Source: a virus. From it: a DNA stretch of 64,000 bases. The stretch lies in the IMG/VR virus record IMGVR_UViG_3300029790_000003; one strand, given 5' to 3'. This document shows, piece after piece, positions 1-18,602 of the stretch; the stretch's first letter is position 1; each line of letters opens with the position of its first letter. A model generated the notes under the pieces. The model had not been told where the DNA came from and searched no databases. It saw only the letters and a list, made by a program, of their open reading frames with translations. The position numbers and the translations under genes were made by a program.

Positions 1-3000
1 CGGCTAATGGAAATCTGCGGTCAATGTCCTCAGCTATGAACATCGGCATTTCTTTGCCATAGCGTTCATCTTGTTCGGATAAATATCCGTCTTTGTACTT
101 CGCCCAGATTACCTTGATTCTGTAGAGGTCTTCCAGTTCATCTTCTTTTATGTTTTTTCCGTTTCCTATTGATTTGTAACGAATCGAAGATGCAGCAGCC
201 GCATTAAGAGTTTTCATATCAGATGCAAAAACAACAGCTGCACTTGCACTAGAGTTCCACGGCAGACCACTCATCGTAACGGACTTATGAAAATTAGCAG
301 AATCATAAAAGTCTGATTTAACATTTACTATCATGGAACCTGAGTTTACTGTTTTGCCACTAAAAAACTGAAAAGCTGTTTTTCCATCATCAGAATAACC
401 ATAAATATCACTTGTTAAAATGGCCATTGTGCCATTATCGTTAACCAAAAGAGGCATTTCTAGATTCAGTAATCCTGCTGAATCGGTTACTCCGTACTTA
501 ATTCCGCTTGAATCAAAAATAAGGCATTTATAGTTATTTTCATTTACATAATCTTTAAATATGGTTAATCCGTCAGGATCAAGCTTACTAGCCCATCCAG
601 TTTCACGGCGGTTCAGTACCTCTAATATCCCATACCCATTATTTTTACCGCCAAGCTTTAATGTGCCACCCTTGGCGTAAGTGAACGAAATATATAGCTG
701 ATTTCCCTCTTTATAAATTCCTTTAATTGCGCCATCATTGGTTAAGAGGTTAAATATTTCTTCATGTGTAAGTGCATCTACATCAATTACAACCGCCATA
801 CTTTGGGAATCTAATGGTTGTGAAAATCCACCCGCCGCGTATAAGGTACATTTTATGGCACTTACATCTCTTGGAATTCCAATTGACCTTCCAGAAGCCG
901 TTGTTATAATTCCTCCCGCTTTAGTTGATAATACCGTATATAAATTATGTGAAACGCTTGTTTCGTCTTTCGCAGAAGAATATACCGTTTTCCAATTTTC
1001 CCCATCTACGGATTCTTCGATTTTAAAACGACCTTTATATGCTGTTCGTGTTTCCGCGTTTCCATCGCGATACCAAGCACTCAAAGTAATATAGCTCGGG
1101 GCTACACTGCCATTCGCGCGTTGCTTAATAACATATGATGGGCTTTCAAGAAAATATGTTCTACCCGGAACTCCTTGTTCTCCCTTAATCTTTGTCCATG
1201 AATAGGCACCGGGGTTAGTGCTATCGGCTTCCGTATAATCTGTATACTGCCCGATGTATTCTTTTCCAGTGCTATCAGATACATCAAAGCCCATCTTACC
1301 ATCCGCGCTGTTTGCGTAAGCTACATGGAAATATGGTGTTCTTCCGTCTGTTCCAGGTTTTCCTGGAGATCCATTTGCCCCATCTGCACCTTTTACAAGC
1401 GTCCATGCATAATCATCCGGGTTAGTGCTATCTTGTAGTTCAAAATCAACATATATACCGATATATTCCCGGTTACTATCAGACACCGAAAAATCGGTTT
1501 TACCATCTGCGCTATTGGCATAAGCAATATGGGTGTAACTTGTTTTTCCATCTCGTCCAGGTTCTCCCGGAAGACCGTTCTTTCCATCGTTTCCCGCATA
1601 AATTTTTGAAATGGAAAATCTTTTGGTCACCGTCAAAGCACTAAGATAAGTTGCCCTAACATCTACCCAACCATCATCGGCTGACAGCCCCGTTACCGTA
1701 TATGTCTTTGCTGAATTGTTCCAGATTCCTGTTATACTATCTGATTTTGTGATTATAAAATTACAATCATCTGTAATATCTTGTGTCCCGTACATTACTA
1801 CAGCATGTGTAATCACATCGCTTGGAAATGTGCCGTAATTTCCATCAGAATCAACAGAAACGCCCTGGTATTCATTGCTCAGTTGCAATGTCATGTTTTT
1901 GGCGAGAGCTGCCGCTTCCTGTGCCTGTTTCGCTGCCGACAATGCGTCCTCAGAATCTTTCAGTGCCTTTGTAACGTCCGTATCTTTCAGCTGTTTCCAA
2001 TAATATCCATTGCCTTCATTTACAAAGCGGTATGCGTGGCTATCGCCATCGTAGTAAATGTCACCGACATGCTTGCTCATTTCGGTATCGTCCAGCCATT
2101 CATTGGCCGGATAATTGCTCAATGTAGGTACTGATGTTCCTGTCCAGGTATTTACATTCCCATCGATCTGCCCCTGCATACTGTTTAACAGTCCATCCAA
2201 AAGAGATGCACCAATCCTAATTGAGGATCCATCCATTATTAATTGATGTTTAGTTATATCGGCAGAAAATATAATATTTCCGCTATTATCACGAACCACC
2301 AAGGCTCCCGTCTTAATCCAGTCAGCATTAACACCTGTAGCCGTAAGGATTCTGGCAATCACATCACCATCAACCGTCATACCGCCATTCCAATGTTGTC
2401 CACCATCTGTAGATACCGCCCATGCTTCTGCGGTCATTTTCCATACAATGTCAGAATCGGATAGCTGTGGTTTGTTGTGAAGATAATAGATATTGCTTCC
2501 GTCCGGCTGTGTTTCCACTGTCGTGTATGTTCCAGAAGATTCCGCAAGGCGTTGTGATAATTCTTCCAGCGCTTTTTCCCTAGAAGTACGCTCATCTCTT
2601 AAGCTTTTTCTATATTCAGATTGTGCCTGTTGATTAAGGGTATATTGCTTCTGTTTGTTTCTTGAAACACTCTTCGCACTGCATTCTAATTGTTCAAAAG
2701 TTCCCGGGTTCAATGTAAGAGAAGTTAAATAACTCTTATGTTCTTCCCCATTCCTATCAGTGATTGTAATAGCATCCCCTGCTTCCAAAGCAATATCGGT
2801 TAGCGCGCTGGTTGTAAAAGGACGAAATTTTAATCCAACACATCTTTCAGCAATTATTGAGCAAATCGTTTGTCCAGTCCCCGGTTGTATTAGCTTATTT
2901 TCGCTAATATCTATGATGTACCCCTCATCCCCTGATTGATATGTTTTAGCGTTACTTTCAGATGAATTGCTTGAATACTCCGTTACTTTTACTCCTGTTA

Positions 3001-3718
3001 TTTCGAGATCGTATAACCAAGGGGTAAATCCGCTTGTATCTTTGGAGGTAATATTAGCTGGAATATTAGATTCTTTTTCATACCATCCGATACACAATCT
3101 ACCGTATGCATCTGTTTTCGCCCACTGACAGCCCATCTGTGCCATCCATGCAATTACCTGTCGAAAAGTAATACTGCTATCATCTGGTCGATTCTGGATT
3201 ACCAAGTCATCATTATCAAATCTGGTTGATTGCAGTGTTACTCCGCACACCTCACAAGCATCCTGGATGATTTGTAATCTGGTTGCCGGGTATGTCAGTT
3301 TGCTATCAGAATAATCACGGTCAAACAATCGCATGGAATCTTCACAAGTTAGGCTGATAATAGCTGTGTTCTGGTATGGGGCATCTGTTACTGTCATGGT
3401 ACAGATACGGATTTTTTCAATACCAGTGGACAATTCAAGTCCAATATGACAAACAACTCTTGCTCCGTCCCAAATGTAATCTGTGTACTTTCCAGAAAAG
3501 TTGTTAATCTGCAAAGTCAGTTTATTTACGATAGCTGCACCAATATCAAAAGAGCCATTTTGCGATACTGCATCCTCAAATTTGAAGCCATTAGACCACA
3601 AGTCCTTGTCGGTAATGGATAATGTGCTTCCGTCCGTAAAGGTAAAATCTGCATATTTCAGATAGTTACGATTCCCACTATTCTGTTGTTCTTTAAATTC
3701 CGTTGATAAATTTCGCAT
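1..3718 (-). CDS. Tail fibre / host-specificity protein, partial (N-terminus at 3718; C-terminus beyond window start)
   Basis: RBS GAGAGG then ATG at 3718. The ORF track lists no closed minus ORF in this frame, so it stays open to position 1. Collagen-like G-X-Y runs (GKNGLPGEPGRDGKT; GANGSPGKPGTDGRT) and ~50-aa tandem repeats (YANSADGK..YIG..DSTNP) are typical of phage fibres. Confidence 0.6.
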   Translation of the reverse strand, partial: MRNLSTEFKEQQNSGNRNYLKYADFTFTDGSTLSITDKDLWSNGFKFEDAVSQNGSFDIGAAIVNKLTLQINNFSGKYTDYIWDGARVVCHIGLELSTGIEKIRICTMTVTDAPYQNTAIISLTCEDSMRLFDRDYSDSKLTYPATRLQIIQDACEVCGVTLQSTRFDNDDLVIQNRPDDSSITFRQVIAWMAQMGCQWAKTDAYGRLCIGWYEKESNIPANITSKDTSGFTPWLYDLEITGVKVTEYSSNSSESNAKTYQSGDEGYIIDISENKLIQPGTGQTICSIIAERCVGLKFRPFTTSALTDIALEAGDAITITDRNGEEHKSYLTSLTLNPGTFEQLECSAKSVSRNKQKQYTLNQQAQSEYRKSLRDERTSREKALEELSQRLAESSGTYTTVETQPDGSNIYYLHNKPQLSDSDIVWKMTAEAWAVSTDGGQHWNGGMTVDGDVIARILTATGVNADWIKTGALVVRDNSGNIIFSADITKHQLIMDGSSIRIGASLLDGLLNSMQGQIDGNVNTWTGTSVPTLSNYPANEWLDDTEMSKHVGDIYYDGDSHAYRFVNEGNGYYWKQLKDTDVTKALKDSEDALSAAKQAQEAAALAKNMTLQLSNEYQGVSVDSDGNYGTFPSDVITHAVVMYGTQDITDDCNFIITKSDSITGIWNNSAKTYTVTGLSADDGWVDVRATYLSALTVTKRFSISKIYAGNDGKNGLPGEPGRDGKTSYTHIAYANSADGKTDFSVSDSNREYIGIYVDFELQDSTNPDDYAWTLVKGADGANGSPGKPGTDGRTPYFHVAYANSADGKMGFDVSDSTGKEYIGQYTDYTEADSTNPGAYSWTKIKGEQGVPGRTYFLESPSYVIKQRANGSVAPSYITLSAWYRDGNAETRTAYKGRFKIEESVDGENWKTVYSSAKDETSVSHNLYTVLSTKAGGIITTASGRSIGIPRDVSAIKCTLYAAGGFSQPLDSQSMAVVIDVDALTHEEIFNLLTNDGAIKGIYKEGNQLYISFTYAKGGTLKLGGKNNGYGILEVLNRRETGWASKLDPDGLTIFKDYVNENNYKCLIFDSSGIKYGVTDSAGLLNLEMPLLVNDNGTMAILTSDIYGYSDDGKTAFQFFSGKTVNSGSMIVNVKSDFYDSANFHKSVTMSGLPWNSSASAAVVFASDMKTLNAAAASSIRYKSIGNGKNIKEDELEDLYRIKVIWAKYKDGYLSEQDERYGKEMPMFIAEDIDRRFPLA

Positions 3719-3721
3719 ATC

Positions 3722-4087
3722 TTACCTCTCGATAAAATCAAAACTAAGTCCTTCCATGCGCTCATTGCCAACCCACCAGCACTTAAAAGGGGATTCCCTG
3801 TCACCAACATAAAATGTTCTGGTTTCGTGCTTGTTTGCAGATAACAAGTCTGGATATGTGACCTGTATGTACTCTGGGTTTACCGCCTGTATAATTTTGC
3901 AAGCAGTGTCCCAATCTGGGCCATTCCAACCTACAGACAGTTTCCGTTTCTGTCCAACTCTGTTTTTATGCATGGTCGTATCGTCTGTTCTGCCGGATTC
4001 TGCCGCTGATATATCCTGTAATCCCCATGTAAAAGAAGAAGGACAGGGCAATGCTACCCCATCCACTTTAAGAAATACTTCTGCCAT
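3722..4087 (-). CDS. Hypothetical protein (121 aa), tail-associated by position
   Basis: ORF with RBS, immediately upstream of the fibre gene, 4-nt intergenic gap. Confidence 0.5.
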   Translation of the reverse strand: MAEVFLKVDGVALPCPSSFTWGLQDISAAESGRTDDTTMHKNRVGQKRKLSVGWNGPDWDTACKIIQAVNPEYIQVTYPDLLSANKHETRTFYVGDRESPFKCWWVGNERMEGLSFDFIER

Positions 4088-4261
4088 ATGCTAACCCTCA
4101 GAAAGGGGGATATATCCCCCTTAATTTATTTAAAGTTTCATACTATAAAGAGAAAAATTCAAAAATTTGTCCTCATTTTTGGCAACAAAAAAGCGCCTAC
4201 CCCGAAAAGTAAACGCTTTAAAAATTGCTTATTATGATTTTATATCATAGCATAGGTGGTT

Positions 4262-4287
4262 GGTATCATTCAGTATATTATGGTATC
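4262..4287 (-). promoter_or_regulatory. Late-operon motif copy S1 (minus-strand GATACCATAATATACTGAATGATACC)
   Basis: Near-identical 25-26 bp element recurs at 20063-20088 and 29304-29328, each 70-175 nt upstream of a minus-strand structural operon. Confidence 0.55.
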
Positions 4288-4383
4288 ATTTCAATAATCT
4301 TTTCACATATGCATAAACAACTTTCAGCCAGTGGCTATTATCGCAATTCTGTACGAGATTAATAATCTCTGTCTTATAGTAAT

Positions 4384-4680
4384 TCATTCCACAATTCCTC
4401 CTAACATTCTAATCAATTTCTGTTTGCGGTTATACTTCAAAATCTCGGAAATCTGCCCCATCATATCATCCATCGTCATGTTGCTCTTCATGCTGTTGCA
4501 GCGCTTACACGCCAGTTGCAGATTCTTAATATCATTGGTGCCGCCCCGGGACAACGGCGTAATGTGGTCGATTGTCATTTTCTTGAATTTGACAGGTTTA
4601 CCGCATATCGCACATTTTCCGTTGCACTTGGCGTACACACTCTTTTTCTGAAAGTCATTGAACTGGATTCTGTTTGCCAT
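4384..4680 (-). CDS. HNH endonuclease (98 aa)
   Basis: CxxC...DHIxP...N...CxxCN HNH motif (CAICGK..DHITPLSRGG..NLQLACKRCNSMK). Confidence 0.75.
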   Translation of the reverse strand: MANRIQFNDFQKKSVYAKCNGKCAICGKPVKFKKMTIDHITPLSRGGTNDIKNLQLACKRCNSMKSNMTMDDMMGQISEILKYNRKQKLIRMLGGIVE

Positions 4681-4684
4681 ACGA

Positions 4685-4867
4685 TCACGCTTTCCCGATT
4701 AACTGTTTGGTAAAGAGATACATTCCCTTTAATTTTGACAGGTCTTTCAAATTGATAAGATTTTCAATGATTCTCTGGCGGTACATATACTCATCCAGAA
4801 GCACTAAGCACTCGTTGTTATCTGCGTTCAGTTCGTCGATTGTTTTCTGTAATTCAGCTTTTGTCAT
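4685..4867 (-). CDS. Hypothetical protein (60 aa)
   Basis: Short ORF, coiled-coil-like, tightly packed between neighbours. Confidence 0.35.
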   Translation of the reverse strand: MTKAELQKTIDELNADNNECLVLLDEYMYRQRIIENLINLKDLSKLKGMYLFTKQLIGKA

Positions 4868-4903
4868 TTTATTTTCCTCCTGTGTATCCCTGTAAAAATC
4901 TGA

Positions 4904-5719
4904 TTATGCGATTTCTACTCTGTATGCAATCATCATTTCTTTAATCACGCTAACGTAAATCTCTTTCAGCCGCTTATTCTGCATAATCACGGACAGTTTG
5001 TTGATCTGGTTAGTCTGTTCCTTGGTGCATCCTCTTTCCTCGGCTCTGGAAATCGCATTTCTAAGTTGCTGATCTAATCGGCAACCAGCCCTGTCCGATA
5101 ATCTGCGGTAGCTTTCGTTTCTGGCGGCGGCATATTTATTTCCGAATGAGTAAGAAAAATCATCGCTTTCAGCAATCTTTGAAATACATCTGTTTACCCA
5201 CTTCTCTGTTCCAACATCGGAATCTGTTCCCTTAAAGGTATCAATGATGGTTTTCATGTTTTTCTCTTGTTGGTCTGCACGTTCCGCAAGTTTCTTCTGT
5301 TCCAGTTCAGTCTTGGCTACCTGTTGAAAAATCTGATTAAACATTTGCAGTTCGGGGGACAGCTGATTAATGTTGATTGCTGTCTGCTTGTATTTCTCTT
5401 CCACTTGGATGAAATACTTGCGAACCTGTTTCCCTTTGTCGTTGCGCTCAAGCATTGCCATTTCTTTGGCGGTGTCAAGTTTGATGAGGTATTCTAATTT
5501 CGGTCTACCCCCCATAGGTTTTTCATTATTTTGTGAAAAACTCTGATAATCCTCATTTTCTATTGCGTCACACTCTTTCAGACGTGTTTTTATCCAATCT
5601 GTATACTGGCGCTTACTACCAAGGCACTCATATAATTCTGAACCATATACTACTTTTTCACCTGTACTTGTCTCATACACAGGAACTAATTCATTTTCAA
5701 TAACTTTTAAATCTGCCAT
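4904..5719 (-). CDS. Phage antirepressor, AntA/ORF6N N-terminal domain
   Basis: N-terminal pattern VVYGSELYECLG..YTDWIKTRL..EDYQ and AKEMAMLERNDKGKQVRKYFIQVE match AntA/ORF6N family signatures. Confidence 0.6.
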   Translation of the reverse strand: MADLKVIENELVPVYETSTGEKVVYGSELYECLGSKRQYTDWIKTRLKECDAIENEDYQSFSQNNEKPMGGRPKLEYLIKLDTAKEMAMLERNDKGKQVRKYFIQVEEKYKQTAININQLSPELQMFNQIFQQVAKTELEQKKLAERADQQEKNMKTIIDTFKGTDSDVGTEKWVNRCISKIAESDDFSYSFGNKYAAARNESYRRLSDRAGCRLDQQLRNAISRAEERGCTKEQTNQINKLSVIMQNKRLKEIYVSVIKEMMIAYRVEIA

Positions 5720-5834
5720 ATAAAAATCTCCTTTCAGATATTGAATTACCGCAAAGGAAATGGTATGATAGATTTAACAAATCCTTTGCGGTTTGTGTGT
5801 TAAGCGGTTGTAACTTTCCTAGGGTGGCAACCGC

Positions 5835-6029
5835 TTATTTTGTTTCATTTTCGTACTGAATTTCAATCCCTTTTCTAATTACTTTCGACCTGTCACTCCC
5901 TTCTTTTCTAACCAAGTAATCCAATTTTTCCAATGTTTCCTTGTCAATCCTCGTTCTCAGCATAAAGTCCTTTGGATTGTCTTTGATTTTTTGCCCCTTT
6001 ATTGGTGACATATTAAAACCTCCTTTCAA
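5835..6029 (-). CDS. Small putative DNA-binding protein (RHH-like)
   Basis: 64-aa ORF; beta-strand plus helix pattern (MLRTRIDKETLEKLDYLVRKEG) resembles ribbon-helix-helix regulators. Confidence 0.4.
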   Translation of the reverse strand: MKGGFNMSPIKGQKIKDNPKDFMLRTRIDKETLEKLDYLVRKEGSDRSKVIRKGIEIQYENETK

Positions 6030-6174
6030 ATTGTTGCTACATTTTGCATATACTTAATATATCACTTTGTAGCAACTAAATCAAGCATTATTTTAAATTT
6101 TTTCAAATTTCTTATTCCACTATCCGTTTTGGAGTGGTAAAATATGTGTATCACATTAAAGAGGGGGATTTTAC

Positions 6175-6906
6175 ATGAAAAGAAAATTTGTTATGGTTTT
6201 GGCTTTAACATCCATTTTTTCAAGTGTTACGCCTGTGTTCGCTAAAACAGATAAAGAAATTCTTTTTAGGGATATTCCGTGGGGAACTTCTTTCTCAGAT
6301 ACAAAGGATTTGTTTCCAGATCAGTGTCTTTATGGCATGCAATTAGATGGGATAAATGCAATGAGTACAAAAGAAATATTAACTGGCATGTCTGACGATT
6401 CCAATGTTTATGATGGTAAAATTTGCCTTTATGCTCAGCCATTAGATATTGCAGATGTAGATGTAGCTGGATATTCTACTCCTTACTTGAATTTTTACTA
6501 TTCTTATAGCATTAATGAAAATAAAATAGATTTTGATGATAGTAACACTTTGTTATATGGTGCACAATATGAATTTGAACCGAAAGATATAGACTCTATG
6601 TATTCTGATTTACTTGAAAAACTTTCATCTGTCTATGGTAATCCTGATAAAACAGAGAGCGATACTACTCAATGGGGAATAAAAAATATTTATACATGGT
6701 GGTATGGTGCTAACAATACTTCTTTAGTTCTTCGGGCATATGATTTATCAGATTATGATGATGATTTAGAAAATAACAAAATATATATTTCTTATGCCTG
6801 GCAAAAAGGAGATGAATTATTAAAAACTGCCGATGATACAATCAGTCAATCGAATAGTGATACCGAAGCAAGTGTATACGGAAATGGTTCCACCAACGGA
6901 TTATAA
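6175..6906 (+). CDS. Secreted protein with signal peptide, D/Y/N-rich (243 aa); only plus-strand gene in the first 39 kb
   Basis: RBS GAGGGGG then ATG; N-terminal signal peptide (VLALTSIFSSVTPVFA-KT); AT-richer codon usage than neighbours. Confidence 0.65.
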   Translation: MKRKFVMVLALTSIFSSVTPVFAKTDKEILFRDIPWGTSFSDTKDLFPDQCLYGMQLDGINAMSTKEILTGMSDDSNVYDGKICLYAQPLDIADVDVAGYSTPYLNFYYSYSINENKIDFDDSNTLLYGAQYEFEPKDIDSMYSDLLEKLSSVYGNPDKTESDTTQWGIKNIYTWWYGANNTSLVLRAYDLSDYDDDLENNKIYISYAWQKGDELLKTADDTISQSNSDTEASVYGNGSTNGL

Positions 6907-6908
6907 AA

Positions 6909-6930
6909 GGCTAGGGATTTCTCCCTAGCC
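6909..6930. terminator. Bidirectional hairpin terminator between convergent genes
   Basis: GGCTAGGGA-TTTC-TCCCTAGCC 9-bp stem; T-rich tail on the minus strand. Confidence 0.55.
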
Positions 6931-6940
6931 TAATTCCTAT

Positions 6941-8047
6941 TTACCATTCTGGTGCTGGCATATCACGAACATCGTATGACATATTTACGTATACTTCATA
7001 ACGATCTGGAATTATTGTATTATAATTTAAATCAGTTGGAAAATATGATTGTAAGTAATCAACACTTCCTTTTCTTTGAACATTAGCAAACAAACCATCG
7101 TCACATCCAATTATTCTATTATTTTTATAGTATACAACTGCCATATGGGTTCCACGATTGTTTTTTCCGTTATTCTTAACTGTTAAAACAACACCCTCTG
7201 TTCCTAAATTTGATGTATACGTAATATTCTTTGCATTAAAATCAAAATATGATACATTTTCTGTTTTTAAATTAATTTTTACAGAATCCCATTGACTTCC
7301 ATAATTTGTCATTAATGTAGCATATTTCATCCCTGGCTCAATTACACACGTATCATACTGATTACTTACTGAAACTATTTGTCCATTCAAACAAAAGGCA
7401 CAACTAATGTCAACCGCAACCGCATAATTGTAATTATTTTGAAGAATTATAACTTCTCCCCTTGGCGTTGCTTCTGCGTGATACGTTACATTGTTTTTTG
7501 AAGTACTCGTATTACCGCCAAATCCACCATTAGAAGGCTTTTTCACAGTAACTTTACAGGTAAATTTCTTTCCAAGAATGGTTGCTGTAATATTGGCGGT
7601 TCCTGCCTTTTTCGCAGTAATTTTTCCATTTTTTACGGTCGCAACGCTTTTCTTTGATGATTTCCATTTTACAGTCTGCTTAGTTCCTTTTACTTTTATG
7701 GTACTTGTCTTTCCAACTTTTAAAATAAGGCTTTTCTTGCTAAGTTTTGGAGATTCCACAGTTACTTTGCAAGTATACTTCTTTTTACCCACTTTTGCAG
7801 TGATTGTAGCAGAACCCGATTTCTTGGCTGTTACTTTCCCAGAACCACTTACCGTTGCCACAGATTTCTTGCTGGAAGTCCATTTTGTCTTTCCTTTTGT
7901 TCCAGACAATTTCAGTTTCAAGGTTTGTCCAGTAAGTAACGTTGCCTTATTCTTACTAATCTTCCCTGCCGCAGATACTGGAACTGCCATACAGACAATC
8001 AATAGCATGACTGCCAGAACCGATAGTAACTTTTTCACTTTCTTCAT
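6941..8047 (-). CDS. Secreted protein with two Big_2 (bacterial Ig-like) repeats (368 aa)
   Basis: Signal peptide; two ~55-aa repeats (KWxSSKKSVATV..GK.TAKK.G.A.ITA...GKK.TCKVTV) typical of Big_2. Confidence 0.65.
   Translation of the reverse strand: MKKVKKLLSVLAVMLLIVCMAVPVSAAGKISKNKATLLTGQTLKLKLSGTKGKTKWTSSKKSVATVSGSGKVTAKKSGSATITAKVGKKKYTCKVTVESPKLSKKSLILKVGKTSTIKVKGTKQTVKWKSSKKSVATVKNGKITAKKAGTANITATILGKKFTCKVTVKKPSNGGFGGNTSTSKNNVTYHAEATPRGEVIILQNNYNYAVAVDISCAFCLNGQIVSVSNQYDTCVIEPGMKYATLMTNYGSQWDSVKINLKTENVSYFDFNAKNITYTSNLGTEGVVLTVKNNGKNNRGTHMAVVYYKNNRIIGCDDGLFANVQRKGSVDYLQSYFPTDLNYNTIIPDRYEVYVNMSYDVRDMPAPEW
7552..7927 (-). repeat. Tandem ~190-bp coding repeat (two Big_2 domains)
   Basis: Protein-level duplication visible in translation. 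Confidence 0.45.
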
Positions 8048-8110
8048 ACACTCATACCTCCCAATAATTGATACCCATATTGTACCACTTTGGGACGCAT
8101 TCTGAAAGCC

Positions 8111-8344
8111 TTATTTCGCTTTTCTATCAATTTCCGCAGTTACGGCAAACAAAAGAGCTTCGGCAAATTTTGCGCCAACCGAATCGGAGTATTTATCGTG
8201 AATCTGGCTTGCTTCCATGGTGAGATTTTCCCACTGCGAAATATCGTCCTTTGAGATAAAGGCATACTTCTTGTGGAGGTTCCATATTTCCTGCCAGATG
8301 GAAAAATAAGTCTGCTTAAAGTCCATCAGCGTAAAGAACCCCAT
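8111..8344 (-). CDS. Hypothetical protein (77 aa)
   Basis: ORF only. Confidence 0.35.
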   Translation of the reverse strand: MGFFTLMDFKQTYFSIWQEIWNLHKKYAFISKDDISQWENLTMEASQIHDKYSDSVGAKFAEALLFAVTAEIDRKAK

Positions 8345-8621
8345 GATATTTCTCGAACCTATGCTCTTGCTTTATTTCTGGGTATTTGTTCCAATCTACC
8401 TTGCTATAAAACATCTTTGTTGGCCTGGCAAATAGTTCCTTACCGCCATACAAAGCTCTGTATACTACCAAATCTTCCCCTGTTTCTGTATGTCTGGCAT
8501 ATCCGATAAACTTATACAAATACTCGTTGTTGCGTGGCTCCTTGATGGTTTCTCTCTTAAAGTGCTGTACAATGTCTCCTGGTTCAAATAATGGTCTATA
8601 CATTTTCTTTCTCCTCCTCAC
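8316..8621 (-). CDS. Hypothetical protein (101 aa)
   Basis: ORF only. Confidence 0.4.
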   Translation of the reverse strand: MRRRKKMYRPLFEPGDIVQHFKRETIKEPRNNEYLYKFIGYARHTETGEDLVVYRALYGGKELFARPTKMFYSKVDWNKYPEIKQEHRFEKYHGVLYADGL

Positions 8622-8878
8622 CCAGCTAAAAGAATATCTCCAGGATTAACTTCATGGAGTTTTGTTATCTCAACATCTTTCTTACTCTCCCCTTCCCAAA
8701 TCAAGCCAAGGCTCAGAGCGATTCCTTTAGCTTCGTTTTCACTTCTGGCGCATACAAGCACATCATTAATACCCATATCGCATTCTATTCTCTTTGTTCT
8801 TGAAACCAAGTAAAGATTCCCGTTTATTTCCATGCTAACGTCCTCCATAATTTGTTGACTTCTTCGCCCGAAAATCAA
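8618..8878 (-). CDS. Hypothetical protein (86 aa)
   Basis: ORF only; 4-nt overlap with downstream gene. Confidence 0.4.
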   Translation of the reverse strand: MIFGRRSQQIMEDVSMEINGNLYLVSRTKRIECDMGINDVLVCARSENEAKGIALSLGLIWEGESKKDVEITKLHEVNPGDILLAG

Positions 8879-8938
8879 TTTTATTGGCTTATGCCTATAT
8901 TTTATAGTGTGAGTGGTTTTGTAGCGGATCCGGTTATT

Positions 8939-9571
8939 TTATCGCAGTAATTCTTTATCAATAATCTGGAAATTTGCCCTGTGGATATAAAGAGCTTTTC
9001 CGTCAATCATTAACTTTGTCATTTTAGGTAGATCGTCCGGGATTTTCCAGAACACCTCGTCACCAGAATATGCGGCTATCGGTTGTCCAAGTTGAGATTT
9101 GATTACTACAACCCTGGATTTCCCAAAATAATTTTTATAATAATTCACAATCCCGGCTATGTATGCATTCTCTGAAATCTTCCCGGTTGAATGGCTGGTA
9201 ATATCTTCCTGGGTAAAATCAACCTCCGGCTCCAATCCTTTTTGCTCAAAAATACAAGTATCACCACAGCTTTCAATTTCTTTACCGTCAATCAGAATTG
9301 TAATAACGGAAGATACGTCATAGCTGGTTGTTTCGTTACCCTCACTATCGTAGCCCTTGGATTTGGTTTTATTCCCGGCAATGTTGATCTTGTCCCCAGT
9401 GGTAGTCATAACCTTTTGACCGTAGTTGTCGTAGGTATAGATTGTGTAACTGTTTCCAGAAAGATTTCCTTTCACGTCATTCATGTAATCGTCATTCGCT
9501 GCACAGCCTGTTAGCCCTGTGATAACGCAAATAAAGGTAATTATCGCCAGTAGTGTTTTGATTCTTTTCAT
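8939..9571 (-). CDS. Lipoprotein (210 aa)
   Basis: Signal peptide with lipobox LTGC (ITGLTGCAAN). Confidence 0.65.
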   Translation of the reverse strand: MKRIKTLLAIITFICVITGLTGCAANDDYMNDVKGNLSGNSYTIYTYDNYGQKVMTTTGDKINIAGNKTKSKGYDSEGNETTSYDVSSVITILIDGKEIESCGDTCIFEQKGLEPEVDFTQEDITSHSTGKISENAYIAGIVNYYKNYFGKSRVVVIKSQLGQPIAAYSGDEVFWKIPDDLPKMTKLMIDGKALYIHRANFQIIDKELLR

Positions 9572-10020
9572 GGTTTTTGTCCTCCCTCATATGTCTCATA
9601 ATCAATCGTCCCCAGATCACCGTACACATCTGGGTAATAGATTCCAACCCAAAAGTTATCTTCCATTGCTTTGTAGTAAGTTACTTTTACATTCCATCTC
9701 TGTACCTCGTCAATAATTTCTTTGTTGAGAAGTCCGAATTGATCTCGGCAAGCTTCACTTTCCAGTTTGTAAGTCAATGCTTTGTATTTCTCGGCATTTG
9801 CCTGTCTGGTGGCGGTAACCGTAGTCTGGCTTATTGCTAAAAGCAATCCAGCGATCAAAAGATATACCGCACCGATAAAAGCCACTGCTACGCCCAAAAC
9901 AAGCACGGTTGCGCTCACATTCGAATACTCATATTCGTAGCTTAAAGATTCTCCTATTCTATTTGCAATCAGAATAACAACGCCGACTGCAAAAATGATT
10001 ATTGATAGCCAAAATATCAT
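9568..10020 (-). CDS. Integral membrane protein (150 aa, 2-3 TM)
   Basis: Hydrophobic helices (IIIFAVGVVILIA; VLVLGVAVAFIGAVYLLIAGLLLAI); translationally coupled to the lipoprotein gene. Confidence 0.55.
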   Translation of the reverse strand: MIFWLSIIIFAVGVVILIANRIGESLSYEYEYSNVSATVLVLGVAVAFIGAVYLLIAGLLLAISQTTVTATRQANAEKYKALTYKLESEACRDQFGLLNKEIIDEVQRWNVKVTYYKAMEDNFWVGIYYPDVYGDLGTIDYETYEGGQKP

Positions 10021-10110
10021 AGTGTGTCCTCCCTTTTCTCATTCTGCGTCAGATTTATCTGACATAATAATATCGTTAGATATTATTCAAAATATAATTC
10101 TTTCTCTTTT

Positions 10111-10217
10111 TCTTAATCTAAATCTATATCTAAATCTATATCTTAATCTATATCTTAATCTAAACCTTTATCTAAACCTTAATCTGAGTGCGTCTACTAT
10201 GCGTCTTTTGTGCGTCT
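10111..10217. repeat. Iteron array, copy A (homologous to the ori iterons inside the replisome-organizer gene at 49509-49629)
   Basis: Shared strings tctaaatcta, ttatctaaacct, atctgagtgcgtct, tgcgtcttttgtgcgtct in the same order and orientation. Confidence 0.7.
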
Positions 10218-10234
10218 AAAAAAATTAATTTATT

Positions 10235-11452
10235 TTAAGGTCTAAAATCATGCTTTTTTCTTTCCTCGCTTTCATATTCTGCACATTTTTCGGCGCAAAT
10301 AGTCCCTCCACAGGAAAACATAGCTTCTGGCATTTGCACTTTTTCATCATATTCTTTGCCTAATTTAAGCATTGAAAACATATTACCATAGTCTTCTCTA
10401 GTAACACAATTTGACCAATATTTATTTGACGCATAATGATTTAAAAGTCTTAATCCTTGTTCGGTAGTTAAAACTGGGTGAGGTTCATTGTATGTTTGAT
10501 AGTATTCCCTGTAATATTCTCTTAGCAATTCTGTGAAACCATTAAGGTACGGAATTAAGCTAACTCTATTTTGCGGCGAATATCTTTCAGAAAAGAAATA
10601 TCCATTATTTTCTAAATCAAGCCCATATTTAATATTTTTTATGCTCTTTTCGCCGTCAATATCTAGTATTCCTACAAAACATTTATCCATCATATAGTTT
10701 TGTGCAAATTTATCCTTATCAAATTTAACGCTTGGATATTTGACAAATATCTTCAAATACCGTTTATTTTTCTTTTCCTCCGCAAAATCTTCTTCTGTGA
10801 TTAAATATGTTTCAACATAATATTTTAAAAGTTTCGGATTAAACTCTATTCCTCGTGATGTTAAAACTTTCTTGATATAATTGAAATAATACTTTGACTT
10901 ATTATCCCCCTTTGAGTGATTAATACACACTCCTGGTATTTTTGAAAATGCCATTACAATTTCATCGTATGAAAATTCTTTACAATATGATTTTACGGAT
11001 TTTTCCATTGCGTCCATAATTTTATCTGCTGAAAATCTTTTCAACCAGATTCCTATTTCTTTGCGTCCGTTATCGTTTACATCACACCCTGTCAATTGTT
11101 CAAAATATTCGGTTAGCATGTTTACTGCCATATTATCATAATCGAGTAGCTCTTTCTTCCATTCAGCAATCATTTCCAACTGTTCTTTTTTCTCTGCAAG
11201 ATCTTTTAATGCTTCCTGTTGAAACGATATTGCTTTGGAATCTAAAATTCTAGTTTTTCCCTTCCCTCTATTGCAGTCGCGGCACGAAGTAATTAAATTT
11301 GTAATCTCATTATCCCCGCCCTCTGCTACTGGCTCAATATGGTCTACTTCCAAAATTACGTCTGGTGACATTCTTCCACAGTATTGACATGTGAATTTGT
11401 CTCTTTTGAATACTTCAAATCTGATTTTCTTGCTAAGTGGTTTTCTTGCCAT
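10235..11452 (-). CDS. HNH endonuclease-domain protein with ~330-aa C-terminal extension
   Basis: Start moved to MARKPL (RBS AAAGGCAGG); CQYCGR..EVDHIEPVAEGG..NLITSCRDCN HNH motif. Confidence 0.65.
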   Translation of the reverse strand: MARKPLSKKIRFEVFKRDKFTCQYCGRMSPDVILEVDHIEPVAEGGDNEITNLITSCRDCNRGKGKTRILDSKAISFQQEALKDLAEKKEQLEMIAEWKKELLDYDNMAVNMLTEYFEQLTGCDVNDNGRKEIGIWLKRFSADKIMDAMEKSVKSYCKEFSYDEIVMAFSKIPGVCINHSKGDNKSKYYFNYIKKVLTSRGIEFNPKLLKYYVETYLITEEDFAEEKKNKRYLKIFVKYPSVKFDKDKFAQNYMMDKCFVGILDIDGEKSIKNIKYGLDLENNGYFFSERYSPQNRVSLIPYLNGFTELLREYYREYYQTYNEPHPVLTTEQGLRLLNHYASNKYWSNCVTREDYGNMFSMLKLGKEYDEKVQMPEAMFSCGGTICAEKCAEYESEERKKHDFRP

Positions 11453-11580
11453 AGATTGATACCTGCCTTTCGTATAAAAGAGTGCCTTGAACTGTATGTA
11501 AATCAACAGGCAGGCGGCAAGGCATTTCCGCTTTTCGATGATCGGTCTAGCCTGTTGGTTTTACCAAAATTAACGGTTAA

Positions 11581-11652
11581 AATAAAAAAGAGCCGCCAAG
11601 TAAGATAAAAATTCCTCAAAATTGAGAAATGTTAATTTCTTCTTAGCGGCTC
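11581..11652 (-). terminator. Rho-independent terminator downstream of the tape measure gene
   Basis: GAGCCGC...GCGGCTC stem with extended imperfect pairing, followed on minus strand by TTTTTTATTTT. Confidence 0.5.
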
Positions 11653-11714
11653 AAAAATTCAAGACCGTGTGTACTTCTTCATTGAAGAAATTATACCACA
11701 CAATCAGTCAAAAA

Positions 11715-14700
11715 TCAATATGCCGGGGACGGTTTGAAACGGCTATCTGTATCATTTTGGGCTTTTGTTACTGCTTTCGCAATCTCGCTTCCGTCCAGGA
11801 TAATGCTGTTCATGATGTACTGCGGATTCTTGTTTCCACTGTTCATACTCATTGCCATTGCAACTCCCTGTGCTACTGCTTTTGCCATTTCTTCTTTTGT
11901 AAGTCCCATGCTTCCGTCTGAACTGGAAACAATGCTGTCTGCAATCTTCTTCATGGTTCGCGGATTTTCCAACGGAAGAACGGCTTCAGAACCAGCTTCA
12001 CCGATGCCAATTACCTGTGCACCATTGAAAAGACCACCTTTGGCGTACCAATTAGGCTTATAAACTGGTGTAGAACTGGTTCTTCCACCACCAAGATCAT
12101 GTTTTCTCCACTCTGAAATATAATAAGTCAGAGTTGGCAAGTGCACTTGTTTCATGCCATCAGCAAATGATTGAGCTGTTTCCCGACCAATTGATGTAAG
12201 ATTAACATTAAATAGCCTTTTAATTTTATCCGAAATCCCAGACAAATTAGATTCTGTGTAGGTTTTCATTTTTCCAGTTTCCGTGTCAACTTTACCAGAA
12301 GCCTTTTCCCAAATCTGGTTTGTATTGATAAGAACAGAAGACCAATAGCTTTGAATGGTTGTCATAACTTTACCCATTACATCTTTGGTATCGGTGTCCA
12401 TGGTTCCAAGGGCTGTTGATACTGCACTTGCAGAATTTCCCCAGTTTGTTTTAGAGTTGGTTTCAACATCATCATTCGTGTTCTTTATCTTTGACCAAAT
12501 AGAAGGCATTGTGCTTTCTGTGCTTTTTTTCATCCCAGCCATTGCAGTGCTTACGGCAGTGTTAGCAAGTCCAAAACCAGTTTTTGTCTTGGATGATACG
12601 GAGCTAGAAGCATTTGCAACAGCGGTAGTAATACCTCCCACTGCTGTTTTCACAGATGTATTCATTCCATCGAAAGAATTCTTTGCACTTGTTTCCATTG
12701 TAACAACTGCATCTGGAAAATCTTTTCTGAGTTTTTCATCTAATTCATCTAACGGAACGCCAGCATTTTTTAATGACGTATAAACTGCGTCTAGTGCTTC
12801 TTCTGTATTAGCATATGTTCTTCCAGATATTGCACTATCAAGAGCATCTTTAGCAGTTAAGTAGTCTCCACTAAATTGCTCGGAACTAAGACTTAAAAGA
12901 TAAAGTTCGTCTTTCAAATCAGATATACTGATTTTGGTTGTATCAAATTTTCCTGCTGATTCAGATACACCATCTCCAAGGGCTATAGCTTTGTCAGTCA
13001 TATCTTCCAAAAATCCAGTTGATACGCCCGCCTGTGCGCCGTATTTTTCGAGAATTTTTCTTGCATCTTCGGTTGATACGCCGAATTCTCCAAGTTTCTG
13101 AATGAAACTATCGTACATTTCAGAATTTGATTTTCCGGCACTTTCATCTGCTTCAATTAACTTCCAAAGCTCTTCTGCTTGGTCTTGCGTTATCTTATGA
13201 GCACTTTCCATCTCGCCTGTATAATCATGGAGATAACCACCTGTTTGTGATAGAATTCCATTTCCACCTTGCGCAGCTTCTGTAATACTTGCAATTCCTC
13301 TTGCGAGTTTAACGGATAATGCCGTTGCGACAAATACAATCCCAGCGGTTCCAAATATAGTACCAAGCGTTGAAGAAAATGAAGATAATCCACCTGTAGC
13401 CGCCGTTTCCGCTGCTCCACCAATATCACCGATGATAGTAGGAAGAGAAGATGCGGTATCAAGTGGGAAATTTAAAAGTTTTGAAGCTAATGAACCGATT
13501 CCACTTGCAAAGGAAAAGATTTTGGTGGCAATATCCTTGGCTATTTTGATTGCAAACAATGTTCCGAATGCAGCACCAACTTGTTTTATAAATTCTGGAT
13601 CAACTCCACTTAATTTTTCAGCCAGCCAATTAATAGCATTTGCAATACCATTAATTAAGTCCGCTCCGATATTAATTATTCCTTCAAGTCCGGTAATCAA
13701 CGCATCTGCAAATCCCTCTGCGAATGGTTGGAATGCAGACCATAAATTTCCAAGAGCAGTTCCAATAGCATTCCAATCAACCTTATCAATAAAATTCTGT
13801 ATTGAGGTTTTTACACGGTCAATGCTACTCCAAATCCACTCCCAGTCAACATCAATAACTCCGAAATTATCAAGTGCAAGTACGATTCCACCGATGCCAA
13901 GTGCCATTGCTGCATAAGGATGTTTTGCCAATAAAGCAAGTCCTTTTCCTAATGGGCTGTCTTTTCCGATGATTCCACCAATAAAGGTTAATCCTTTGAA
14001 TCCAAGGATTGCAATGGAGATTTGTCCAAGTCCTTTTCCAATTGCCTGTGCAGTTTCCGGGCTGATATTCTTTATTGCATCGGCAATTGAGTTCAAGCCT
14101 ACAGGAAGCGTTGTATTGATGAAATTTTCTCCAACATCGAGCAAATCTTTGAAGAAGTCAACAATTCCCTGTCCAACATTTTGTGCAAATGGCGCAAGTG
14201 CATCCCAGAAGTTTTTCAATGCCGAATTAAGTTCGTCCCAGTGAATGTTGTTTCCGAAATTTGTTAATGCGTCAACAAGTTCCGGGATTGCACTATTCAT
14301 TGTCCATGTACCTACCGGCACTAAGAATTTCTCATAGAAATCCATGAGACCAGTCCAAACAAATTTTGTTGGCTTTTGAAGCATTGTAAAGAAACTGGAA
14401 AGCGAGCTATTCAGTTTACCCCAATTGATTTTATTCAGTAAATCATTCGTAATATTAAAGAACCGTGGAAGCCCGGAATTATCAGATAACATCCATAATC
14501 CAATTGGTTTCAGATAATTATTCCACAAATCTTTCAGAGCTGTAATAGAGAAGTTTCCAAGCTTGCTAAGACCTTCACTGTACAGTTTCTTGATTGATTC
14601 TGTGGTTGGTTTAGCTGCTTTACGAATTTTCTTAAATACAGCTACAATCTGATCAGCGGTATCATTTGCCTTATTATTCATTTCTTCAAAAGCTTTATCC

Positions 14701-17700
14701 CATGCAGCTTGATACTCTGATAGGGCTTTATCTAATGCAGCATCCAATTCTGGAAGGTGTGTACTCCCACCGCCTCCACTTCCGGAAGAACTGGAAGAAT
14801 TGCTAACTTTTGCATCATTTAATTGATTTAATTCATCAAATGAAAGCACAGAAAGACTTTTTTGTAATTTCTTCGCATTGTCATTTGTTTTGTCAAGCCC
14901 GGAAGCTGCATCTTCTGTACTATCTGCAATACTTCCCATATCAACTGCGGCACTTCCTGTTGAGGCAACATAGTCGGACATTTTGATGCCTAAAAGTCTT
15001 CCAATCCACGAAAAAGCTCTCTGAATTGCAATAACAAAGGCGTTCATATATGGAAGAATCTTTGAGATAATTGGAATGAATAATGAACCGATAGTTCTTG
15101 AAAGTGCCGAAAAATTAGATTGCAGTAATCTTAATTGGTTTGCCGGCTGATTTATCGTATTAGCCAGGTCACCCCATGCATACTTTGAACTATTCAAGAT
15201 TGTTATAGTTCTCAGAATAGCCTTGTCCGATTGACTTAAACTTGATACAGTAGCGTCAATTCCAAGATTATAAAGTTCCTGTTGTAAATTTGCCACACGG
15301 ATATTAATGCCGTACTTGTCAATAGCCCGGCTCATTCCGGCTATTCCGGATGCCATATCATTCCATACATTGTTGAACTCAAGGTTCTTTACAGAAGCAA
15401 GGTCTGCCCCGATTTCTGTTAAAGCTTGTGAAACCTTAGTTGATGCATCTGCTGTTGCCCCCATAGATGATGCCATCTGAGCATAGGTGGCTTGATAATT
15501 CATCGTTTGGTTCGGATCAAGTCCGAGGCTCGTGCCTTTTGTTCTAGTCAGATCACCTGCATCTGATACTTCAAATCCAGTCATTTTTTTTGTCAGTTCT
15601 TTTGCACGTTTTTCAAAAGAACCCACATATTCCTCTGCGGATTTTACTCCTGCATTCTGCCACTTGCTCACGCCCAATCCGTCTGTAACTTGTTCGAACG
15701 CAGAATTGAAATAGTTCAATGTTTCAACATAATCAGATGCAGACTTTACAGAATTCCAAAGTGCTTTAATTCCTCTTGTCACAGTAAAAAATTTTGCATA
15801 TAAACTAGCAAGCTGTGAAGTTAATGAGCCAGTCTTTCTTGTGGTTACAGTTGCGGTATTTCCAAAATTAGCTAGTGCAGAGCTTGCAGAGCCAATCATG
15901 GAAGCTAATTTTCTTCCTGCATTTCCAAGTCCATTTGCGGCATTTGATAATCTCGAAAATGAATTCGTAAGAGAATTTGTGGCTTTATTTATTTTCCCAC
16001 TTGCAGTAGCTAACTGTGCCAAAGCTTCTGTCATTCTTACTGTGTTTTCGTTGATTTTTGGTGCGGTTTTCATTACATTGAAGAATGACAATACTTCATT
16101 TGCTAGTGTTCCAAGTTGTCCAGAAGATTTAGAAATTTTACCGCCAGCACTTGCCAATTGTGCAATTGACTGAACAAACCTATTTACGGAATCTGAAATT
16201 CCATCAACACCAATAAAGCTTTCTGTGATAAATTTCAAGCTACTTCCCAATGCAGGTAATTCAGTCGATACATTTGCAATATATTCGCCGGAATTGGCTA
16301 GTCTAGCCATTGAATTAACAAAACGATTAACACTTGCAGATACATCCGGTATTGCCGATAATCCAGATAACTGAGTGATTATCTCGCCAAGTTTCATAGA
16401 ATTAAAATTACTAATATCTACCTGGCTAAATCTGCTAATGGAATTAATGATTGCGTTCAAACCGGAAGCTTTATAATTAACATTTCCCATGGCTCTTAAA
16501 GAATCTGAAAACTGTTTCATTCCATCGGCAATGCTTGTCATCTGTCCTGCATCAATTTCTTTAAGTTTTCCGGTAACTGCATCTTTAATTCCTGTAGTAT
16601 CTACATCCAGAGTGACTTTTACAGCGTTATATTTCAGTTCAGCAACTTTATTGATTGCCTTCTGAATATCCATTGTTATCTTATCCGTATTGATTTTTAC
16701 ATCAATAGGGAGCTGACCGTCCGTACCTTTTAATGCGTCATTAAGTCTTGTTTTTACCTGTTCAGCGAGCTGCTGAGTGGAATCGACAGCCATTCCCCAC
16801 ACTTTGTCCGATGCTTTTGAAGCGTTTTCTCCATAAAGCGATTCTATTGATACTGGCTTTATTGATTCTCTAACTTTTTTGATATTTTCAAGTATGGTAA
16901 TCAGCTGATCTGCTGCATTTATAGTATCTCTTGGTACAAGAGTTGGGAATCTATCTGCTAATTCTTGCCAGGATTTGTCAAGTGTAATGCCTTTGGTTGC
17001 ATCTGTAACAACCTTATTCAGATTGTTTTTCAGAATCTCAGAAAATTCGCCTTTACCAAGGTCGGCTTTTAGCATATCGGAAACATAGATTTTCTTGTTT
17101 TTGAAGTAATTATTGAAATCAATCCATTCTTGTTCTGCTCCATCTAAGTAGCTTCCAAGATTAGCTTTTACTACACTTCCGCTTTTGAGAATCGTATTTC
17201 CAATTTCTTCAACAATGCTTCCAACATTTCCAGAGATTTCTTTTCCGTCAAAAGACTGTGCCATTTCCTTTGCAAGTTCGTTCATTTGAGAACGAACTTT
17301 TGAAGCAGCACCGCCTTTTAAGTTAAATGCTTCAATTAATTGCTTTGAAATGGAAGAGGTATCAATTTTAATATCACGTACTGTTTTATCAATGGCGTAT
17401 TGCAGTTTTTGTGTTTGATCTCCACCCTTGATATCCAAATCAATACTAATCTTTTGATTCTGAAGATTGCTAAGGTTGATTTTACTAAGTGTGTTTAATT
17501 TTGAAATAGCACTATCAAGCCCAGAAGTACGGACATTTCCTAGAGAATTAAAGGCAGACGTAACCCTTCCAAGTTCCCTTGCATAACTACGTAATCCATT
17601 TGTATTAACTCCGCTTAATGCGGAATTAACTTTTGTGAGTTTATTTGAAAGATTAGTCAGCGCACGTACTGCTTTTTCTGTACTACTGCTAATTTGTATA

Positions 17701-17729: not shown

Positions 17730-17747
17730 TTTATTTATCCCTCCTTT

Positions 17748-17794
17748 TTTACAAAAAAATAAAGGGCAGACAAGAGTGTTAATCCTGCCTGCCC
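17748..17794 (-). terminator. Hairpin plus T-run overlapping the end of the GT ORF, immediately upstream of the TMP start
   Basis: GGGCAG...CTGCCC stem followed (minus) by TTTATTTTTTTGT. Confidence 0.45.
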
Positions 17795-18602
17795 TTTTCA
17801 TGGTTAAGCTCAAAGTTCGCCTGCATGAGTTGCAAGCTTGCCAAAAGTGCGTTTCTCTGTTTTTTCTTTTCTTCTTCGGAAAGTATACCTTCCTGTTTAC
17901 GCTTTTCTTCCTCTGCTGATTCCAGTAAAGGTTTCTTCAAATACTCTGCTTTGGATTTTTTCCCAATTAAAGCATTTGCAACAGCCGTAAATGTAGCCGA
18001 TGTTTGATAAATACCAGCTTGCCAGAGTTCAGCGTCTTTCCTTTTTTGGCGTATCTTTTCAGCTTCGAGATAAGGTTTCAATTCAGCTGGCGTAGAATCC
18101 ATAAATTCTTCTTTGGATACACCGATAGAGAGGTATAAAGGAAGAATCTCTTGGTAAACAACTTCTCGAAAAGTTAATTTTTCTTTTTGTGATCCTGTGG
18201 AAGCTTCGTTGCATTCTTCTCCACTGCCTGTGCTTCTGCTACTGCATTCAGCAGACCGGATAAAAAACCATTTTTCTCCAATTCTTTGTCGAGAAGTTGG
18301 TATAAATCAAATCCGCTTTTCGGATTTTCCTCAGTCCCTTCATCTTCGTAATCATCCAAAAGGTCACAGACTTTATTAAGAACAGCTTCTTTTTCAGAAT
18401 CACTTTCATACCCAAACTCTTCCTTGTGTTTCTTTTGAAGTCCGGCAAGAAGCAGTTCCGGGAGAAGAGAAATCATCTTCTGAAGGCTTCTCTCTTTTCC
18501 ATCTGTAATCCCCTGTACCTTGTCCAGCACATCTGTTTTTGTAAGAAGTCCATATCCAAATACAACCTTATACTCTTTTCCATGTACATTGAAAGTTACC
18601 AT
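17779..18602 (-). CDS. Tail assembly chaperone G-T fusion via programmed -1 ribosomal frameshift
   Basis: The -1 frame downstream of slippery C_AAA_AAG (18183-18189) is open and runs straight into ORF 17779..18102 (..DHKK/EKLTFREVVYQ..MDSTPAELK..). Confidence 0.6.
18174..18602 (-). CDS. Tail assembly chaperone G (142 aa)
   Basis: Acidic protein between MTP and TMP; ends ..HKKKN* with the slippery site 2 codons before the stop. Confidence 0.7.
   Translation of the reverse strand: MVTFNVHGKEYKVVFGYGLLTKTDVLDKVQGITDGKERSLQKMISLLPELLLAGLQKKHKEEFGYESDSEKEAVLNKVCDLLDDYEDEGTEENPKSGFDLYQLLDKELEKNGFLSGLLNAVAEAQAVEKNATKLPQDHKKKN

Follow-up and report, generated by a model that had tools for sequence, protein, structure and literature searches.

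The stretch analysed here (the window) comprises 64,000 nucleotides of an uncultured gut phage with a genome of ~80 kb, and nearly all its genes lie on the minus strand. Between a membrane-protein gene with two hydrophobic helices (9568-10020, minus strand) and a gene for a 423-aa HNH endonuclease (10235-11506, minus strand; PF01844, E=2e-14), which itself follows the gene for the 2032-aa tape measure protein (11715-17813, minus strand), there is a non-coding origin-like module at about 10042-10223 on the minus strand (core 10048-10217), hereafter site A. The same module is found 39 kb away as site B (49464-49628), within the linker-coding part of an ORF (49132-50040, minus strand) which matches the PHROG DnaD-like helicase loader and replication initiation O-like families (PHROG 5708, E=8e-62) and is predicted to encode the replisome organizer or origin-binding initiator. 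A preliminary description had reported that the iteron block of the organizer gene recurs in the same orientation at 10111-10217, between the membrane-protein gene and an HNH gene following the tape measure gene, and both the recurrence and this placement are borne out. The plus-strand ORF 9995-10219 (translated as NLNLYLNLYL), which it had dismissed as a translation of the repeats, is indeed spurious.

Anatomy of the two sites

Read in the sense of the genes, sites A and B display a common layout in the same order and orientation, namely three to four AGACGCA iterons at 11-bp spacing, followed by a 6/12-bp GAT array of ~80% A+T and then by two inverted repeats. At site A, three AGACGCA iterons (TGCGTCT on the plus strand) with 11-bp spacing occupy 10189-10217 (minus strand), and the 6/12-bp GAT-type array, which is 79% A+T including the spacer and varies in copy number among relatives, occupies 10111-10185 (minus strand). 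The inverted repeats GTCAGAtaaaTCTGAC and AATAATATCtaacGATATTATT at 10048-10087 comprise IR1 (AATAATATC-TAAC-GATATTATT, 10066-10087) and IR2 (GTCAGA-TAAA-TCTGAC in gene sense, 10048-10063). Site B has four iterons with 11-bp spacing, three AGACGCA and one AGACGAA (49589-49628, minus strand), a 6-bp GAT array of 80% A+T (49507-49585, minus strand), and the inverted repeats CGTCAGaCTGACG and AATAGTATCTaaAGATACTATT at 49464-49498, of which IR2 spans 49464-49476 and IR1 49477-49498; no strand is assigned to the inverted repeats of either site. Here the iteron and array block is coding and specifies the acidic linker of the organizer (residues ~137-177), with the array supplying its DKD/LD stretch, and site A contains stop codons in the gene sense. 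Tandem Repeats Finder recovered a pair of arrays at each site, one of period 6 (10111-10185 and 49507-49585) and one of period 11 carrying TGCGTCT (10189-10218 and 49589-49628).

An iteron origin is recognised by at least three direct repeats spaced by a helical turn next to an A+T-rich element; three such repeats are present at site A and four at site B, and the composition of the adjoining arrays is 79-80% A+T vs 62% for the window. The GAT array of site A is the putative DNA-unwinding or bending element. Tandem hairpins are predicted from the inverted-repeat pairs with z = -4.0 at site A and -5.2 at site B relative to shuffled controls. A scan for promoters and terminators around site A returned counts no higher than in shuffled sequence, and Rfam gave no match at either site. 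Among near-identical contigs (L276-L314) the 12-bp unit TTTAGATATAGA, equivalent to window 10111-10185, ranges from ~2 to 7 copies and behaves as a variable-number tandem repeat.

When 10040-10225 was compared by blastn with the whole 64-kb window, 10058-10217 aligned to 49470-49628 on the same strand with 76.5% identity over 162 nt and 5 gaps (E=4e-26), the single significant partner in the window; the next best match had E=0.009. The pattern TGCGTCT-N4-TGCGTCT, allowing up to 2 mismatches, occurs 5 times in the window against 0.2 expected, and the ATCTWW 6-bp array 19 times against 0.14 expected, with every occurrence of either falling at site A or site B. Since both patterns are far above chance, the likeness is not one of generic AT-rich low complexity, the outcome that the preliminary description had named as fatal to its claim, and the TGCGTCT core is common to both sites. 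The four strings which it had quoted are present in the window only at these two sites, and the homology extends beyond the coordinates it gave, as each site also possesses the two adjoining inverted repeats.

The organizer of the window consists of an N-terminal domain of the type here termed T1 and a C-terminal domain (~residues 178-302) which recurs with the two other N-domain types of the group, T2 and T3. The T1 N-domain matches neither PF09681 (Phage_rep_org_N) or TIGR01714 nor any other Pfam family, and shares 51-59% identity with the initiators of Lactococcus, Streptococcus and Enterococcus phages, including those of the P335 type. The gene directly downstream of the organizer (48581-49135, minus strand) may encode a helicase loader, a weak assignment based on matches to phrog_9804 (E=1e-34) and to the 'helicase loader' family phrog_2289 (E=7e-8), and is without a Pfam match.

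Organizer types and iteron types in relatives

IMG/VR holds hundreds of related contigs of ~80 kb, of which about 90 were compared. Megablast of both loci against the INPHARED phages returned no match, and there is consequently no close cultured relative at the DNA level in that collection; the terminase is nearest to those of human faecal phage contigs and of a [Clostridium] innocuum phage. The organizers of these relatives are 87-100% identical in the C-terminal domain, yet fall into three N-domain types, with those of T2 and T3 matching PF09681/TIGR01714 (E=8e-37 and 3e-45, respectively). The in-gene repeats are located alike in all three types, and a GAT-type array and a conserved IR1 come after them. 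The in-gene iterons of T1 are four copies of AGACGCA with an 11-bp period, those of T2 are of the form C[A/T]G[T/A]AAC (ATGTAAC, CAGAAAC, CAGTAAC and CTGTAAC; 11-bp period), and those of T3 are of the CAGTAAA type (TGTAAA, CAGTAAA, CGGTAAA and CAGTAAA; 12-bp period). The degeneracy of the T2 copies can be understood from the fact that CAG-TAA-C would create an in-frame stop in one of the three phases. In a scan for CAGTAAC-N4-CAGTAAC, among the matches listed at least 5 lie at site A and none at site B of the group, the others being chance matches. IR1 of site B is kept in all three types. In the T1b lineage, synonymous changes disrupt IR2 of this site, and we accordingly claim no function of IR2 there.

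N-domain types with matched iterons conform to the classic pattern of initiator/iteron specificity. The N-domain type and the C-terminal variant are themselves shuffled within the organizer gene, such that T1 occurs with variant a in 28 cases and with variant b in 20. Further afield, a scan of bacterial genome contigs found in all two distant T1-like organizers, one in an Erysipelotrichaceae isolate assembly and one in a Eubacteriales MAG; their N-domains are ~75% identical to T1, their iterons are AGACGAA and confined in either case to one block, and their C-domains are different.

With an exact 35-mer taken from the conserved sequence flanking site A, 43 contigs are retrieved, of which 22 have AGACGCA iterons at site A (AG type) and 21 have iterons of a second kind, CTGTAAC/CAGTAAC/CAGTAAC with an 11-bp period (CA type). 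The two versions differ only in the iteron-proximal half, which resembles the corresponding part of the cognate site B, including ~20 nt past the last iteron; the distal halves are site-specific, i.e., different between A and B, and common across the types. The version present at site A is associated with the organizer N-domain encoded 39 kb away: T1 contigs have 15 AG and 0 CA copies, with 5 lacking site A, and T2 contigs have 1 AG and 10 CA copies, with 7 lacking it, so that N-type and site A type match in 25 of the 26 T1 and T2 contigs that possess site A. For T1/T2 against AG/CA the Fisher test gives p=2e-6, a value uncorrected for relatedness which overstates independence, since these metagenomic assemblies are related to one another and derive mostly from a single IMG dataset. 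Site A type is correlated with the C-terminal variant as well; where N-type and C-variant make conflicting predictions, which is the case in two contigs, site A follows the N-type. The identical iteron cores of the two sites in the window, together with this association across genomes, lead us to infer that the same organizer binds both.

The T3 contigs depart from this pattern, with 2 AG copies, 2 CA copies and 5 contigs lacking site A, and along with the single T2 contig of AG type they make up the non-cognate combinations; no site A of T3 type was found among 80 loci examined at this position. These cases bear on a further reading, in which site A would be a decoy origin in the style of Per (phage-encoded resistance) that titrates the initiator of a co-infecting or superinfecting relative of matching type, as the T3 phages carry a site A fitting the T1 or T2 organizers and not their own. 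Cloned lactococcal phage origins reportedly do inhibit phages by titration. Per is an engineered, plasmid-borne decoy, unlike the natural second copy found here. A single copy on a phage genome would be a weak sink. Moreover, since 25 of 26 site A copies in T1 and T2 contigs match the resident organizer, a decoy would mostly titrate the phage's own initiator, and we regard this explanation as very unlikely.

In two IMG/VR contigs only (092171 and 080917; organizer loci L045:4170-4982 and L046:10001-10807), the T1 organizer gene is an allele without the internal origin, in which 45 nt stand in place of the iterons, the array and half of IR1, resulting in a protein with a short linker. Contig 092171 possesses a site A of AG type with the longest array seen, and this is the only iteron cluster in the examined parts of the contig; contig 080917 is not typable for site A, as the expected position falls at the contig end.

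Directly upstream of some T2 organizers there is an ORF of ~173 aa in which a T1-like organizer N-domain, 54% identical to residues 1-74 of the window organizer (E=1e-24), is fused to an HNH motif that is just at threshold for PF01844 (L360:642-1163; also L391:4686-5204, L372:1223-1741 and L393:1763-2281). It is present in 11 of 47 assessable T2 loci (among L481-L531) and absent from all T1 and T3 loci examined. This fusion may represent an origin-targeting homing endonuclease.

A variable slot with replication-related cassettes

The synteny comparison proposed in the preliminary description recovered relatives both with and without the second copy and placed it in a variable slot. The conserved flanks of this slot, on the right the membrane-protein gene and on the left the tape measure gene, start at ~10040 and resume at 11569, and the cassette between them, window 11569 to ~10040, is variable. 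Site A is present or absent as one unit, and as about half of the relatives are without it, it is dispensable for the group.

The HNH gene is optional cargo of the slot. The preliminary description had considered a footprint of HNH-mediated homing as one possible origin of the second copy, and in agreement with this, all 25 of the close HNH homologues retrieved have site A directly downstream. However, site A occurs with and without the HNH gene, being unaccompanied in 18 of the 43 flank-bearing contigs (in addition to one 5'-truncated locus that is unscorable), and HNH presence is independent of iteron type, with all four combinations in existence. Further, the iterons match the organizer's own origin and nothing in the HNH gene. 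The notion that site A is the footprint or target of the adjoining 423-aa endonuclease is hence not borne out, and we consider it hardly credible.

Retrieval via the membrane-protein gene yielded 80 slot loci, comprising 32 with site A, 44 without it and 4 that are truncated and hence unassessable. All 44 assessable loci without site A carry an intact initiator-like gene, repX or repY, which ends exactly where site A would be, and intact repX or repY are found in 0 of the 32 loci with site A. The product of repX (339 aa; L400:2985-4004) has matches (E=1e-31) to PHROG families annotated as DnaD-like helicase loader or replication initiation protein, and that of repY (377 aa; L402:2871-4004) has an HTH_36 domain and matches a PHROG replication initiation protein family (E=2e-13). 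Both genes contain central repeats, of 21 bp in repX (two copies) and of 24 bp in repY (three copies). Every type of slot cassette is thus replication-related by predicted function; the mutual exclusion itself follows by construction from their sharing one slot. We also observed that the two proteins have different winged-helix/HTH N-terminal parts and similar C-terminal tails.

One locus, the only one with a repX remnant among the 32 with site A, preserves a recombination joint (L404:3556-3796), where the first 48 codons of repX, frameshifted, run into the final 39 codons of the HNH gene, with a site A of AG type following. Such joints, and the pronounced mosaicism of the slot in general, would be expected if site A were a non-functional relic of an organizer gene stranded in a recombination hotspot, with its match to the resident organizer resulting from linkage, clonal descent or concerted conversion. 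The homology between sites A and B stops ~13 nt past IR1, as that of a gene fragment would, and the correlation with the C-terminal variant and the existence of the non-cognate combinations (T3+AG, T3+CA and the one T2+AG) point in the same direction. In a variant of this explanation, homing by the fusion of a T1-like N-domain with HNH would cut AGACGCA origins at both loci, with which the occurrence of that fusion at 11 of 47 T2 loci but at none of the T1 and T3 loci would agree; the sole T2+AG contig also has the fusion, which is awkward for homing. Against a relic in general, the left boundary of site A lies exactly at the iterons, with no organizer coding sequence carried along, and N-type and C-variant are freely shuffled within the gene, yet N-type and site A agree in 25 of 26 contigs. 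A further argument comes from L101/L105, a diverged lineage in which site A has other flanks. Its HNH protein is 63-68% identical and its downstream gene is a different one, and the whole site A module is nevertheless retained, with three perfect AGACGCA iterons, the array, an IR1 identical to that of site B and, at the same place, an IR2 (GATTGA-TAAA-TCAATC) whose arms have changed in a manner that keeps the palindrome. The relic explanation is therefore, in our assessment, distinctly improbable.

Other cargo is optional in the slot, namely the HNH gene, an anti-repressor-like gene and a TnpB insertion. The last (OrfB_IS605 of the IS605 family, with a Cas12f1-like TNB) lies between repX and the membrane-protein gene (L420:2662-3825, also in L410) and is probably also present in the truncated loci L396, L421, L439 and L443. 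In the window, the Rfam int-alpA RNA motif RF02996 is found at 11485-11557 on the minus strand (45.4 bits vs a gathering score of 35.8), between the tape measure stop and the HNH gene, whose annotated TTG start it overlaps. The leader-encoded peptide IYIQFKALFYTKGRYQS is found again in repY-type cassettes, where it lies ahead of another HNH gene, of 140 aa (L402:2393-2815). More broadly, the tape measure gene and the next large tail ORF (2-3721; >1240 aa, cut off by the start of the window) are ~8 kb apart, and the cargo in between (3722-11714) comprises the HNH gene, site A, the membrane-protein gene, genes for a DUF5052 and a Big_2 protein, a plus-strand ORF and an anti-repressor.

Site A as a putative second origin

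On these sequence comparisons site A is best read as an orphan copy of an origin module that normally resides within the linker-coding part of the organizer gene. As to its role, the comparative evidence favours a second origin or an organizer-binding site, both of which the preliminary description had listed. The reading we prefer, with a probability of about one half, is that site A is an accessory, organizer-cognate second replication origin, on which the phage's own organizer would act in trans. The T1 organizer would bind, via its N-terminal domain, the three AGACGCA iterons, which would lie on one face of the DNA on account of their spacing by one helical turn; the bound organizer would then oligomerise and destabilise the adjoining 6/12-bp array of ~80% A+T. 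The common C-terminal domain would next recruit the helicase loader encoded downstream and the replicative helicase, and the two inverted repeats alongside may either extrude or serve as signals for loading or priming. Site A could thereby provide a second initiation site in the late region of the ~80-kb genome, that is, an extra firing site, or the only origin where the organizer gene has lost its internal iterons. Binding, unwinding and firing at site A are each inferred in this scheme, which is favoured by the retention of the whole anatomy, by the persistence of site A in contig 092171, and by the initiator-like nature of the alternative cassettes with their internal repeats. Counting against it are the dispensability of site A, the non-cognate T3 and T2 cases, the presence of three iterons at site A as opposed to four at site B, and the precedent of oriR in Bacillus phage SPP1.

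The SPP1 origin oriL is contained in gene 38, and oriR occupies an intergenic position among moron genes of the late region; both consist of direct repeats with an AT-rich unwinding element, and G38P binds both (PMC6316719, PMC5737612). In its genome (NC_004166), nt 395-441 of gene 38 match 4901-4948 at 87.5% in the same orientation. The SPP1 oriR is not known to fire and is proposed to be a fork barrier for the theta-to-sigma switch (PMC3485210). The arrangement in the window is alike in that one origin occupies the linker-coding region of the organizer gene, the second, again with repeats and an AT-rich element, is intergenic in a segment that breaks up the late structural genes near moron genes, and the two copies are far apart in the same orientation. 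Thus the pair of sites A and B appears, by this comparison, to be an SPP1-type dual-origin arrangement, now in an uncultured gut phage group. The organizer of the window has no detectable homology to G38P (BLASTP E=0.96), and SPP1 is therefore to be taken as an analogue and not a homologue. Further differences are that the SPP1 AB boxes are replaced here by 7-bp cores at 11-bp spacing with a long 6/12-bp array and two palindromes, and that the second copy is accessory, sits in a variable slot, comes in two specificity versions and can be replaced by initiator-like genes. Moreover, SPP1 is a lytic phage of 44 kb, unlike the ~80-kb and probably temperate phage considered here.

By analogy with SPP1, site A could bind the organizer without initiating, either as a fork barrier that triggers the theta-to-sigma (concatemer) switch or as a titration or regulatory site. 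The oriR model (PMC3485210, PMC6316719) is one argument for this, and others are that site A has a late-region position and is oriented like site B, both of which are paralleled in SPP1, and that the cognate iterons are its best-conserved part. A site for binding alone would need only iterons, and the full origin anatomy of site A thus counts for an origin: the AT-rich array and both inverted repeats are retained although neither a barrier nor titration would require them. Further, no recognisable origin would then be left in the genome with the ori-less organizer, and the alternative slot contents, being whole initiator-like genes with internal repeats, are origin-like and not barrier-like. 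We therefore consider binding without initiation rather unlikely, albeit the likeliest of the alternatives. Ten early-region ORFs of the window yielded no recognisable helicase, recombinase or resolvase, and thus the machinery for an SPP1-style recombination-dependent restart is not confirmed.

Origins embedded in initiator genes are familiar from lambda, with ori inside gene O, and from other lambdoid and Firmicute phages. As in lambda, the iterons, the AT-rich region and an inverted repeat of site B lie in the region coding for the flexible linker between the DNA-binding N-domain and the loader-binding C-domain, and the initiator is modular, with the N-domain and the iterons here changing together and the C-domain being kept. 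Unlike lambda, which has a single origin, the phage described here has a second, non-coding copy 39 kb away, and its T1 N-domain is without a Pfam family. The similarity to the Lactococcus, Streptococcus and Enterococcus initiators noted above is that of the T1 N-domain, and T2 and T3 belong to PF09681.

More tentatively, and with clearly less than an even chance of being correct, the group could be viewed as keeping an always-filled second-origin slot between the tape-measure and distal-tail genes with interchangeable cassettes, each being either an orphan cognate origin (AGACGCA or CAGTAAC) or a self-contained initiator-like gene (repX or repY), with switching of specificity perhaps driven by the homing endonuclease that combines an origin-binding domain with HNH. 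If true, late-region second origins would be a selected and evolvable feature and not an oddity of SPP1, and origins would themselves be homing targets. The role of the second copy, in the form of SPP1 oriR as a fork barrier triggering concatemer synthesis, has for over 25 years remained a proposal. The group described here offers natural genotypes relevant to it: the copy may be present or absent, cognate or non-cognate, the in-gene origin may be deleted, and the slot may be occupied by a different initiator-like gene. These genotypes make the question addressable by comparison. Likewise, the three matched N-domain/iteron sets (AGACGCA, CWGTAAC and CAGTAAA) provide material for studying the DNA specificity of organizers.

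With regard to the remainder of the window, a large serine recombinase (589 aa), from which the phage is probably temperate, and a DUF4417 nuclease-like protein are encoded in 45440-47898 (minus strand), with the replication genes on one side and the sole block of plus-strand ORFs (42800-45100) on the other. The GC skew reverses at that block, and the arrangement suggests a lysogeny or switch region in the middle of the genome. A GIY-YIG endonuclease gene is present at 41643-42185, and four tRNA genes (Ser-TGA, two Met-CAT and Gln-TTG) lie at 34631-35812 (minus strand), upstream of the packaging and head genes. The early region additionally contains two DNA methyltransferase genes (51697-52203 and 54863-55585, minus strand), and a gene for a MazG-like pyrophosphohydrolase is found at 51177-51803.
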